64,000 nucleotides of DNA from Candidatus Aenigmatarchaeota archaeon (GTDB taxonomy: Archaea > Aenigmatarchaeota > Aenigmatarchaeia > QMZP01 > QMZT01): assembly GCA_963726265.1 (NCBI GenBank), contig CAVSBQ010000002.1, positions 928,001-992,000 on the forward strand, read 5' to 3'. A program made the translations under genes and the position numbers. Position 1 is the first letter of the stretch. Every line of letters begins with the position of its first letter. The notes beneath the pieces were generated by a model. It was not told the origin of the DNA. It made no database searches and saw nothing but the letters and a program-made list of their open reading frames with translations. Positions 29,330-32,001 of this stretch are shown here, piece by piece.

Positions 29330-29608
29330 CGTAACTGTTTGAACTGACGTTGCAACGGTGTGAGAAATAGGGGATTAGACGGCAACTTTTGGCGAAGTTG
29401 CCTTCGTGCGAACCCAATTCGTTTGGCGACGAAGAGGGTTCATTGAATCTGATTTTCGTGTGTTACTCTTGAGTATAAGCTATTTCTTGGAAAATAATTG
29501 AAAAAAGAACATAAATACATTTCGCTTCCAGAAAACAGACGATTGGAAATATATTTTCCAGTGGAGTTTTCGGCGGCGGGATGGGTTGTAAAGGAGGGGT
29601 GAGTGAAA
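29330..29608 (+). promoter_or_regulatory. Long structured 5' leader (or ncRNA) upstream of ftsZ2
   Basis: TATA CTTTATATA at about 29301. Hairpins GGCAACTT-TTGGCG-AAGTTGCC and GAACCC..TTCGT-TTGGCG-ACGAA..GGGTTC, plus TGGAAA-TATAT-TTTCCA. No plus-strand ORF in the track. Confidence 0.55.
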
Positions 29609-30946
29609 ATGGACGCAATTGAGGATAACGCGGGAGGAAACGCGGCCGAAGCTATGGCAGCCATAGACGCGGTAACAGCGGCCGCAGAAACGGCGCCAGC
29701 AGCCGTAGCCACAGAACCGGTAACGGTGGAAGCGGCACCTGTGATAGCAGAAGCAGCGCCAGTTGTGCAAGTTACGCTGGCTGCAGAGGCCGTGGTGGAA
29801 GCCATGCCGGTTGTGGTGAATGTCGCGCCTGCGAAGGCAGACGTACAGTTGAAGGAAGTGAAGGCTGCGAAAGCGACGGCGGCAGGCGAGTGCGTCGAGG
29901 ACAGGATAAAGGACGAATTCGGCCTCGAGATGATGAACGCCAAGATAATGGTCATGGGCGTCGGAGGGGGCGGCAGCAATACGGTGACGAGGCTGACTGA
30001 GCTCGGCATAAGCGGAGCGAAGACCATGGCGATAAACACGGACGCCAGGCATCTTGCGACTTCGAAGGCGCACGCGAAGTTCCTGCTAGGCAAGGATATC
30101 ACGCGCGGCCTCGGAGCGGGAGGCTACCCGGCGATAGGCAAGAAAGCCGCTGAAGAGAGCGAGCGCGACCTGCGCAAGATCCTGGAAGGGGTCGACATGC
30201 TGTTCCTCGTGGCCGGCATGGGCGGAGGAACCGGAACGGGCGCAGCGCCGGTCCTGGCAAGGATAGCGAAGGAGCAGGGCGCGATAGTGATAGCGAACGT
30301 GACCATGCCCTTCAAGGTCGAGGGCGCGAGGATGGGCAAGGCGGAAGACGGTTTATACAATCTTAGGCAGTATTGCGACACTGTTATAGCCATAGAGAAC
30401 GACCGCCTCCTGAGGATAGCGGGCAACTTCCCGCTGAAGCAGGCATTCTGCGTCGCGGACGACCTCGTGGCAGGCATGATAAAGGGGATAACGGAAACGA
30501 TTTCCATGCCTTCGCTGGTCAATCTCGACTACGCCGACGTGCGCGCGATAATGCATTCCGGCGGGGTCGCGACGGTCGGGTTCGGAGAGGCGGACTCGAA
30601 AGGCCGCGCCGAGAGCTGCATCGTAAGGGCCATGTCCAACCCGCTGCTGGACGTCGATTACCACGGCGGCACGGGCGCGCTTATCCACATCACGGGCGGG
30701 CCAGATCTCCGCCTGGACGAGGTGAGCCTGATAGGCGAATACGTGTCGAAGCAGCTGGACCCGGACGCGCAGGTCATATGGGGCGCCAGGATAGACCCGA
30801 GCTACGGCAACAAAATGAAAGTCATAACCATCGTGACGGGCGTCAAGTCGCCTTACATCATGGGCAAGTTCGGCTGCGAGAGGCATGCGGATTTGATGCC
30901 GGAGCGCAGCCTGCACGCGGAGCTTGGCATACCGCTGCTTGCGTAG
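29609..30946 (+). CDS. ftsZ2: Cell division protein FtsZ2 with Ala/Val/Pro-rich N-terminal extension
   Basis: GVGGGGSN, GMGGGTGTG, PSLVNLDYADV (FtsZ2-type). Alternative GTG start at 29603. Confidence 0.93.
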   Translation: MDAIEDNAGGNAAEAMAAIDAVTAAAETAPAAVATEPVTVEAAPVIAEAAPVVQVTLAAEAVVEAMPVVVNVAPAKADVQLKEVKAAKATAAGECVEDRIKDEFGLEMMNAKIMVMGVGGGGSNTVTRLTELGISGAKTMAINTDARHLATSKAHAKFLLGKDITRGLGAGGYPAIGKKAAEESERDLRKILEGVDMLFLVAGMGGGTGTGAAPVLARIAKEQGAIVIANVTMPFKVEGARMGKAEDGLYNLRQYCDTVIAIENDRLLRIAGNFPLKQAFCVADDLVAGMIKGITETISMPSLVNLDYADVRAIMHSGGVATVGFGEADSKGRAESCIVRAMSNPLLDVDYHGGTGALIHITGGPDLRLDEVSLIGEYVSKQLDPDAQVIWGARIDPSYGNKMKVITIVTGVKSPYIMGKFGCERHADLMPERSLHAELGIPLLA

Positions 30947-31003
30947 AATCCCGGGAACGCACGGATGCTCAAGCCGGCAATCTGAGAAGCGCCAGGCAAG
31001 GCT

Positions 31004-31112
31004 TGCAGAAAGGGGAATATAGCGGGACAAGCGCAGCTCACCCCTCCGCCGTTTCGCTACCCATCCCTACCGCCTGCCTTTACTTTCTTTCATTTTCCGC
31101 TTTGTTTTTTTA
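31004..31112 (+). ncRNA. Structured 3' element of ftsZ2 with anti-RBS loop, followed by T-rich terminator
   Basis: TAGCGGGAC/GTTTCGCTA and GCG/CGC stems enclose the loop CAGCTCACCCCTC. Complementary to 29572-29603. Confidence 0.55.
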
Positions 31113-31136
31113 TGCAGGCCTGCCCAATTATTCCTC

Positions 31137-31538
31137 ATGAAGGGCCAGCTTTTCATGGTCGCCATAGTTTTCCTCATAGGCATGGTCTTCGTCGTGCAGC
31201 AGGCGCTTTTCACATATTCATCCATCGACGTTTCCCAGCCCTTCAACGCGAGGGGCGGCGGCCTTTTCCGGGACATGGTCGGGATAGTCAACCAGACGAT
31301 TAAGGATACCTATTACTGCAACGAGACCAGGGACAGCTTCCAGGACAGGCTCGATGACATAAAGACTTTGTTTCTCGCAGAGCACGGCAGGGAATATTCC
31401 ATAGAGTTCACCTATTCCCTAAACTGCTCGGCCTGGTCCAATGCTCAGCCGTCGCCTTCGCCGCTGCGCATAACCATAAGCGTAACCAGCCGCGGCAGCG
31501 ACACCAGGGGGACGTTCGATTTTTACCACAAACAATAA
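31137..31538 (+). CDS. Pilin-like protein with class III signal peptide
   Basis: MKGQ followed by a hydrophobic helix; Cys pair and N-glycosylation sequons. Confidence 0.7.
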   Translation: MKGQLFMVAIVFLIGMVFVVQQALFTYSSIDVSQPFNARGGGLFRDMVGIVNQTIKDTYYCNETRDSFQDRLDDIKTLFLAEHGREYSIEFTYSLNCSAWSNAQPSPSPLRITISVTSRGSDTRGTFDFYHKQ

Positions 31539-31877: not shown

Positions 31878-32001
31878 AGCCCCGTAGTCTAGTGGCCAAG
31901 GATACCAGGCTTTGGGTTCGCAAAGTCCAAAACTTTGAGCAGGCCTTGCCTGCCATGAAAGAAGAAACCTGGCGACGGCGGTTCAAATCCGCCCGGGGCT
32001 A
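31878..32001 (+). tRNA. tRNA-Gln(TTG) with 51-nt intron at 37/38 (31916-31966)
   Basis: AGCCCCG/CGGGGCT acceptor, CCAGG-CTTTGG|intron|A-CCTGG, CTTT/GAAG central BHB helix. Confidence 0.92.

Follow-up and report, generated by a model that had tools for sequence, protein, structure and literature searches.

The ftsZ2 locus of an uncultured archaeon raises the question of whether the message for a core division protein can be silenced by its own 3' end. The DNA analyzed (the window) is a stretch of 64,000 nucleotides from Candidatus Aenigmatarchaeota archaeon (CAVSBQ010000002.1, positions 928,001-992,000; assembly GCA_963726265.1), and all coordinates are window positions. The closest named records of the locus belong to Ca. 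Aenigmatarchaeota, and the order consists of tiny, uncultured archaea. An earlier, sequence-only reading of the window had proposed that three blocks flanking ftsZ2 pair across the gene and mask its Shine-Dalgarno (SD) sequence, either as a switch joining the two untranslated regions (UTRs) or as a small RNA derived from the 3' end.

Gene identity and gene neighborhood

The genome of 1.1 Mb contains four ftsZ copies. The window gene belongs to the FtsZ family by its TIGR00065 match (Table 1), and another copy on the contig lies beside genes that, judged by eye from the sequence, we take to be nusG- and rpl11-like. FtsZ1 is linked to secE-nusG-rpl11 as a rule of synteny, so the nusG/rpl11-adjacent copy is FtsZ1 and the window gene is FtsZ2, as the sequence-only reading had named it. 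Translation most likely starts at ATG 29609; an alternative GTG at 29603 falls within the SD. The N-terminal extension of FtsZ2 (about 95 aa, window 29609-29900) is rich in Ala, Val, Pro and Glu, has repeats at 15-nt spacing and differs widely in length among orthologues. Two additional FtsZ2-type paralogues were found at G000:C2:42771-43814 and G000:C2:133572-134606, and congeners likewise have extra copies. A small ORF divergent from the second paralogue looked ribbon-helix-helix-like by eye and was not matched by the RHH_1 search, whose single match in the genome is distant from ftsZ2.

The 133-aa gene downstream of ftsZ2 probably has its own leaderless promoter, and a TATA-like box lies upstream of it near 31107-31114. 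The N-terminus of its product (KGQ, then a hydrophobic run) resembles the pilin-type (class III) signal peptides of archaea. The gene follows ftsZ2 in 18 of 21 loci of the family. The neighbor and its strand differ between families, yet the anti-SD element is kept regardless, which places the 133-aa gene outside the putative switch. Farther downstream, a tRNA match (31878-32001) spans 124 nt, so an intron is probably present; tRNA was the only Rfam family above threshold when the window region and 10 orthologous loci were compared with Rfam.

Table 1. Features of the ftsZ2 locus (window positions)
Feature	Position	Strand	Remarks
Promoter-like motifs, conserved	29473-29523	+	Alignment of 28 leaders; putative promoter role
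GTATAA box	29473-29480	+	28-leader alignment
AT-rich box, TTG at end	29491-29500	+	28-leader alignment
A-rich box	29511-29517	+	28-leader alignment
TTTCG, near-invariant	29520-29524	+	28-leader alignment
Leader hairpin	29518-29583	+	Structure conserved across the order; begins at near-invariant TTTCG
Outer 5' blocks	29572-29576 (GGCGG) and 29578-29586 (GGGATGGGT)	+	Exact; extend the duplex; species-specific
Extended SD region, 5' helix arm	29593-29604	+	-16 to -5 relative to ATG 29609
ftsZ2 CDS	29609-30946	+	445 aa; TIGR00065 397.8 bits, over cut-off; Pfam Tubulin and FtsZ_C
3' UTR hairpin, anti-SD in loop	31012-31068	+	Local fold; layout in this genus
Anti-SD element, 3' helix arm	31036-31047	+	89 nt past stop; order-wide conservation and covariation
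Outer 3' blocks	31059-31067 and 31070-31074	+	Exact; species-specific
U-rich tract, putative archaeal terminator	31079-31111	+	From sequence; termination predicted
Downstream gene	31137-31538	+	133 aa; family without NCBIfam or Pfam match

Complementary sequences at the two ends of ftsZ2

Each of the three blocks is the exact reverse complement of its partner, and the SD block can be extended to a 12-bp helix that ends in one G-U pair (29593-29604 with 31036-31047). The duplex of the 5' region with the 3' region had a predicted energy of -77.6 kcal/mol. When the 3' side was dinucleotide-shuffled 1000 times, 2 shuffles did as well; of 1000 shuffles of the 5' side, none did. In a ranking of 1009 ORFs, crudely called across the genome, the duplex energy came second, the first-ranked ORF looking like a shadow ORF, and the locus ranked first among the 193 genes of this genome with a strong SD. 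In another gene, at G000:C2:357149-357952 (rank 4 of 1009), 10 nt of the 5' flank are exactly complementary to the 3' flank.

The duplex of 25 bp described by the sequence-only reading is exact in this genome, but the conserved unit is the SD helix of 8-16 bp and not all three blocks. The outer blocks were absent from four congeners, each of which has its own, shorter extension, and in a comparison of outer blocks within the genus the own partner or extension was best in two of five rows. Pairing of the outer blocks in this genome would encroach on the base of a hairpin in the leader.

Distribution and specificity of the SD helix

Flanking sequences came from 30 loci, 31 named loci and 100 more regions, and the genomes of the order covered were a subset of those listed. 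Left out of the set were duplicates, one partial locus, one locus without a start and one whose 3' flank was shorter than 60 nt. Loci were scored by the best uninterrupted helix, with short-loop closure, that positions -20 to -1 can form with the 150 nt past the stop. The score serves for ranking, and its cut-offs (-15 and -12) were chosen after the first loci had been inspected.

The helix reached -15 or below in 35 of 57 ftsZ2 loci of the order and -12 or below in 42 (the strong loci), with a median of -17.2; a strong helix was missing in 15 of the 57. The corresponding counts were 4 and 5 of 37 for ftsZ1 in the same order and 7 and 24 of 193 for the strong-SD genes of this genome; among 40 FtsZ2-like genes from other orders, 1 and 4 reached the two cut-offs. 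Three of 73 scorable metagenome ftsZ loci (80 taken) and none of three extra FtsZ2 paralogues reached -15. By these counts, the feature is concentrated in ftsZ2 of one order. An SD partner of similar strength was found within the CDS in only 3 of 57 loci and in the interval from +150 to +300 in only 2 of 56. The element was a stronger partner of the SD than the host 16S tail in 42 of 42 cases, a comparison that carries little weight and is partly circular because the element was chosen as the best helix.

One FtsZ2-like gene of another order (L108, G063) has an 11-bp SD helix 5 nt past its stop and is possibly an independent case. Among ftsZ1 genes, a short C-run before a T-tract is common at the 3' end (L077, L078, L088, L091, L092), and a few of these 3' ends pair well with their own SD.

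Covariation of the two arms

The arms vary in sequence between clades and match within a locus, as in the pairs GGAGGGGTGA/TCACCCCTCC, GGAGGGGG/CCCCCTCC and GAGGGAAGA/TCTTCCCTC. Further clade-matched arms are GAGGAGAGG/CCTCTCCTC and ATCAGGAGGGA/TCCCTCCTGAT, and the pair GGGAGGGA/TCCCTCCC was present in six of six members of one family; clades were read from a quick tree used for that purpose only. Own pairs had a mean helix score of -16.5 vs. -12.5 for swapped pairs, a difference reached in 0 of 100,000 permutations overall and in 0 of 20,000 among 31 hand-picked clade representatives, although related genomes are not independent and the permutation p-values therefore overstate the support. 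The own-vs.-swapped signal was missing for ftsZ1 (p 0.26) and for the other orders (p 0.20). Compensatory change between the arms, for which the sequence-only reading had pointed to related genomes, was thus found there, and the complementarity is conserved and covarying in the orthologues of the order. A lack of complementarity in orthologues, which would have refuted the sequence-only reading, was not observed, and its interpretation is supported in part.

The own 5' region was the best or tied-best partner out of 57 in 11 of the 42 strong cases and in the top tenth in 29; the low number of best matches is due to near-identical SDs that are common to many relatives. Taken together, the comparative sequence evidence indicates that the helix that the 3' UTR forms with the SD of ftsZ2 is a real feature under selection.

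Structure of the leader and the 3' UTR

The conserved promoter-like motifs suggest a transcription start at about 29500-29524. The leader that would follow contains a hairpin that was absent from the sequence-only reading and overlaps its outer 5' blocks: the 3' arm takes in GGCGG and the larger part of GGGATGGGT. The hairpin had a predicted energy of -28.6 kcal/mol (z -5.8, 0 of 200 shuffles), and two-sided changes occurred at 4 of 12 consensus pairs in an alignment of 12 hand-picked leaders. The leader folded better on the plus strand than on the minus strand in 35 of 48 loci and worse in 11.

The 3' UTR of this genome has a local fold (31012-31070, -21 kcal/mol, z -2.5) in which CTCACCC (31037-31043) forms a 7-nt loop with a weak closing step of 2 bp, and the mean unpaired probability of the anti-SD element is 0.69. 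The earlier claim that the anti-SD is displayed in a hairpin loop is approximately right for this genome and holds for five of five genus members, whose stems differ; it does not extend to many other orthologues, in which the element comes right after the stop. The consensus fold of the genus hairpin was weak (-1.84 kcal/mol), with two-sided change at 8 of 21 pairs. Three loci had an element that is locally occluded, with an unpaired probability of 0.03-0.15. In one genus (L023, L024, L029) two tandem C-rich, anti-SD-like elements followed by a hairpin were observed 3' of ftsZ2.

The 3' arm begins 5-98 nt past the stop, and within 16 nt of it in 18 of the 42 strong loci. The T-tract said to follow the element is present here as a U-rich stretch, and a T-rich tract occurs within 46 nt past the element in 39 of the 42 strong loci, directly adjoining it in several. 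A scan for sigma-70 promoters and intrinsic terminators is of no informative value for an archaeal genome.

Energetics of the closed state

The loop between the two arms measures 1.1-1.4 kb. Unconstrained folding of the whole transcript gave the helix a probability of about zero in this genome, and when the 3' piece was lengthened in a fold of two strands, both local hairpins persisted in place of the helix. A closed-state model was also used that held the CDS free of pairs, the state toward which translation would push it, and penalized the loop at its true length. This model favored the closed state by 21.8 kcal/mol in this genome; it favored closure in 33 of 57 ftsZ2 loci vs. 8 of 37 ftsZ1 loci, and closure was marginal in the four congeners (+0.8 to -2.5 kcal/mol). 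Fold models of this kind are no proof that the arms pair in the cell, nor do they rule it out.

Proposed mechanism and alternative explanations

The ends of ftsZ2, changing together, point to a putative RNA brake on FtsZ2 synthesis in which a long-range helix under selection would close the mRNA. During transcription the strong, extended SD would be free and ribosomes would load. Once the 3' UTR was complete, the C-rich element before the terminator tract would pair in cis with the SD over 8-16 bp; in this genus the pairing may nucleate at the hairpin loop and zip on toward the leader hairpin. New initiation would then be out-competed and the closed transcript would probably decay sooner. We consider it probable that occlusion of the SD in cis, once the 3' UTR exists, limits the FtsZ2 made per transcript, in which case a single division gene would carry its own limiter of dose or pulse. 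The sequences themselves establish complementarity, specificity to ftsZ2, conservation, covariation and position; the transcript ends, the pairing in vivo, its cis geometry, and repression with its purpose are predictions.

CdrS, the usual regulator of ftsZ2, is reported to be absent from DPANN (PMC7439475), and we infer that an RNA lock may act in its place. A possible but doubtful extension of this idea is a closed loop gated by ribosomes that stands in for CdrS, with busy mRNAs open and idle ones shut, so that FtsZ2 would be made in on/off pulses. The lock lies 5-16 nt past the stop in many members; a ribosome ending translation there would unwind it and expose the start site next to it. 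Silent, stored mRNA would possibly be the source of the FtsZ2 pulses in these cells, which presumably depend on a host.

An unlikely alternative to a dose limiter is storage, in which the SD helix, with the leader hairpin at one end and the 3' hairpin at the other, makes a stable, silent mRNA that is activated later by 3' trimming or a helicase, comparable to full-length hok mRNA or to the protective pairing of hbs. Both ends of the mRNA are structured, the leader hairpin is conserved, and the exosome core (Rrp41) is present in the genome, whereas RNase J had no match over the cut-off and RNase III (PF00636) had no match in the genome, which is 88% complete. However, no conserved processing site was seen and the element often lies directly before the T-tract. 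The half-life of mRNAs with a distal anti-SD was shortened in the Bacillus experiments (PMC12697547).

The loop display in the genus would also suit an element that acts in trans, as the small RNA of the sequence-only reading or by pairing between mRNAs, on ftsZ2 and perhaps on ftsZ1 or other messages with an SD. The ftsZ2 3' UTR pairs fairly well with the ftsZ1 SD of the same genome (median -12.9), and icaR dimers were observed in vitro (PMC3868564). The own 5' region was nevertheless preferred over that of ftsZ1 in 25 of 33 genomes, with 2 ties, and ftsZ2 was the top partner of the element among the 5' regions of this genome. The short distance between stop and element in 18 of 42 loci leaves little room for a separate RNA, and the compared loci gave no Rfam match for one. 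As the element tracks the SD of its own gene, the small-RNA half of the earlier proposal was not upheld, and action in trans is quite unlikely.

The frequent T-rich tract after the element, together with the short C-runs often found at ftsZ1 3' ends, could instead point to termination or 3' processing, by a giant-loop hairpin of SD and element before the U-tract or by a C-run within a local terminator. Several loci, however, have a separate local hairpin between element and tract, and a local signal alone would not track an SD 1.2 kb away. Archaeal termination relies on U-tracts and aCPSF1 and not on hairpins, and this explanation is very unlikely. Its generic form, a terminator C-run, was rejected because a C-run precedes the T-tract in only 20 of 454 T-tract genes of this genome.

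An inverted repeat acting at the level of DNA, with no role for RNA (the ends of an inversion, a protein-bridged loop or arms homogenized by template switching), is highly improbable. The helices are nearly all Watson-Crick, with 12 internal G-U among 386 pairs, but pairing is kept via G-U in some arms. The arms are short, variable in sequence, centered on the SD and offset by +5 to +98, and the gene order with the downstream neighbor is kept in most loci of the family.

G-rich SDs pair somewhat with any C/U-rich tail, and in this genome an antisense ORF of 225 codons begins 8 nt from the element, yet chance pairing of a purine-rich SD with a pyrimidine-rich terminator, or an SD serving an antisense ORF, can practically be dismissed, since ftsZ1 of the same genomes, windows within or downstream of the CDS, and other genes stayed at background, the arms are clade-matched, and an antisense ORF of at least 50 codons follows in just 4 of 57 loci. 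Circularization at a bulge-helix-bulge motif, which has 3-nt bulges on opposite strands flanking a 4-bp helix, was rejected because inspection of the predicted duplexes by eye did not reveal the motif.

Comparison with known systems

The cis brake proposed for ftsZ2 would work like that of icaR of Staphylococcus aureus, in which a C-rich motif of the 3' UTR is complementary to the SD of the same message (PMC3868564). In ftsZ2 the complementarity of the 3' UTR motif to the SD of its own mRNA is conserved beyond chance and specific to that SD; a block of initiation after transcription is complete is proposed in both, and in both the pairing may be in cis or in trans (PMC3868564). What appears new is the archaeal setting, the core division gene, recognized here from sequence, and arms that covary across an order, whereas icaR has one fixed motif. 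The ftsZ2 3' UTR is also short in comparison. RNase III was not found, so a decay step like that of icaR is not to be assumed, and must differ if the enzyme is truly absent. As no RNase III for that step was found in the 88%-complete genome and repression is predicted, we do not class ftsZ2 as a full member of the icaR type.

Reporters in Bacillus subtilis make the same pairing plausible: a distal anti-SD occluded the SD in vivo, shortened the half-life and cut translation (PMC12697547). The Bacillus anti-SDs are synthetic and such sequences are depleted from CDSs, whereas in ftsZ2 one has been retained and adjusted within a natural 3' UTR, across the longer loop. The effect in Bacillus fades with distance, to 44% less protein beyond 500 nt (PMC12697547), and by analogy the length of the ftsZ2 loop would speak against a strong effect.

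Other messages share single features with ftsZ2. The ends of hbs mRNA of B. subtilis pair over a long range in a 14-bp helix, which affects a cleavage site within the leader (PMC5737220). Fold-back inhibition of hok likewise pairs the ends and needs 3' processing and an antisense partner (PMC3868564), neither of which was seen at ftsZ2. In haloarchaea both UTRs jointly set translation; that paper gives no pairing mechanism, and "base pair" and "complementar" have 0 occurrences in its text (PMC2636863). CdrS also controls the dose of FtsZ2, but as a DNA-binding protein that acts on transcription (PMC7439475, PMC8406309). The bacterial riboregulators StfZ and DicF control the dose of FtsZ and are reportedly separate RNAs outside the 3' UTR of the ftsZ message. 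A search of the main texts of open-access literature gave no 5'-3' UTR pairing for any archaeal or ftsZ mRNA, in agreement with the sequence-only reading, which had recognized no described control of archaeal division of this kind.

Significance

For bacteria, reports of natural mRNA interactions over a long range are few (PMC12697547), and in haloarchaea the cooperation of the UTRs is known and its mechanism is not (PMC2636863). The ftsZ2 helix is an evolutionarily supported candidate for such an interaction in an archaeon, defined to the base pair. It is placed on a core division gene of a group that is reported to be without CdrS, the usual ftsZ2 regulator (PMC7439475). The naturally matched and mismatched arm pairs would provide ready material for disrupt-and-restore experiments on the dosing of FtsZ2 in DPANN-type cells.
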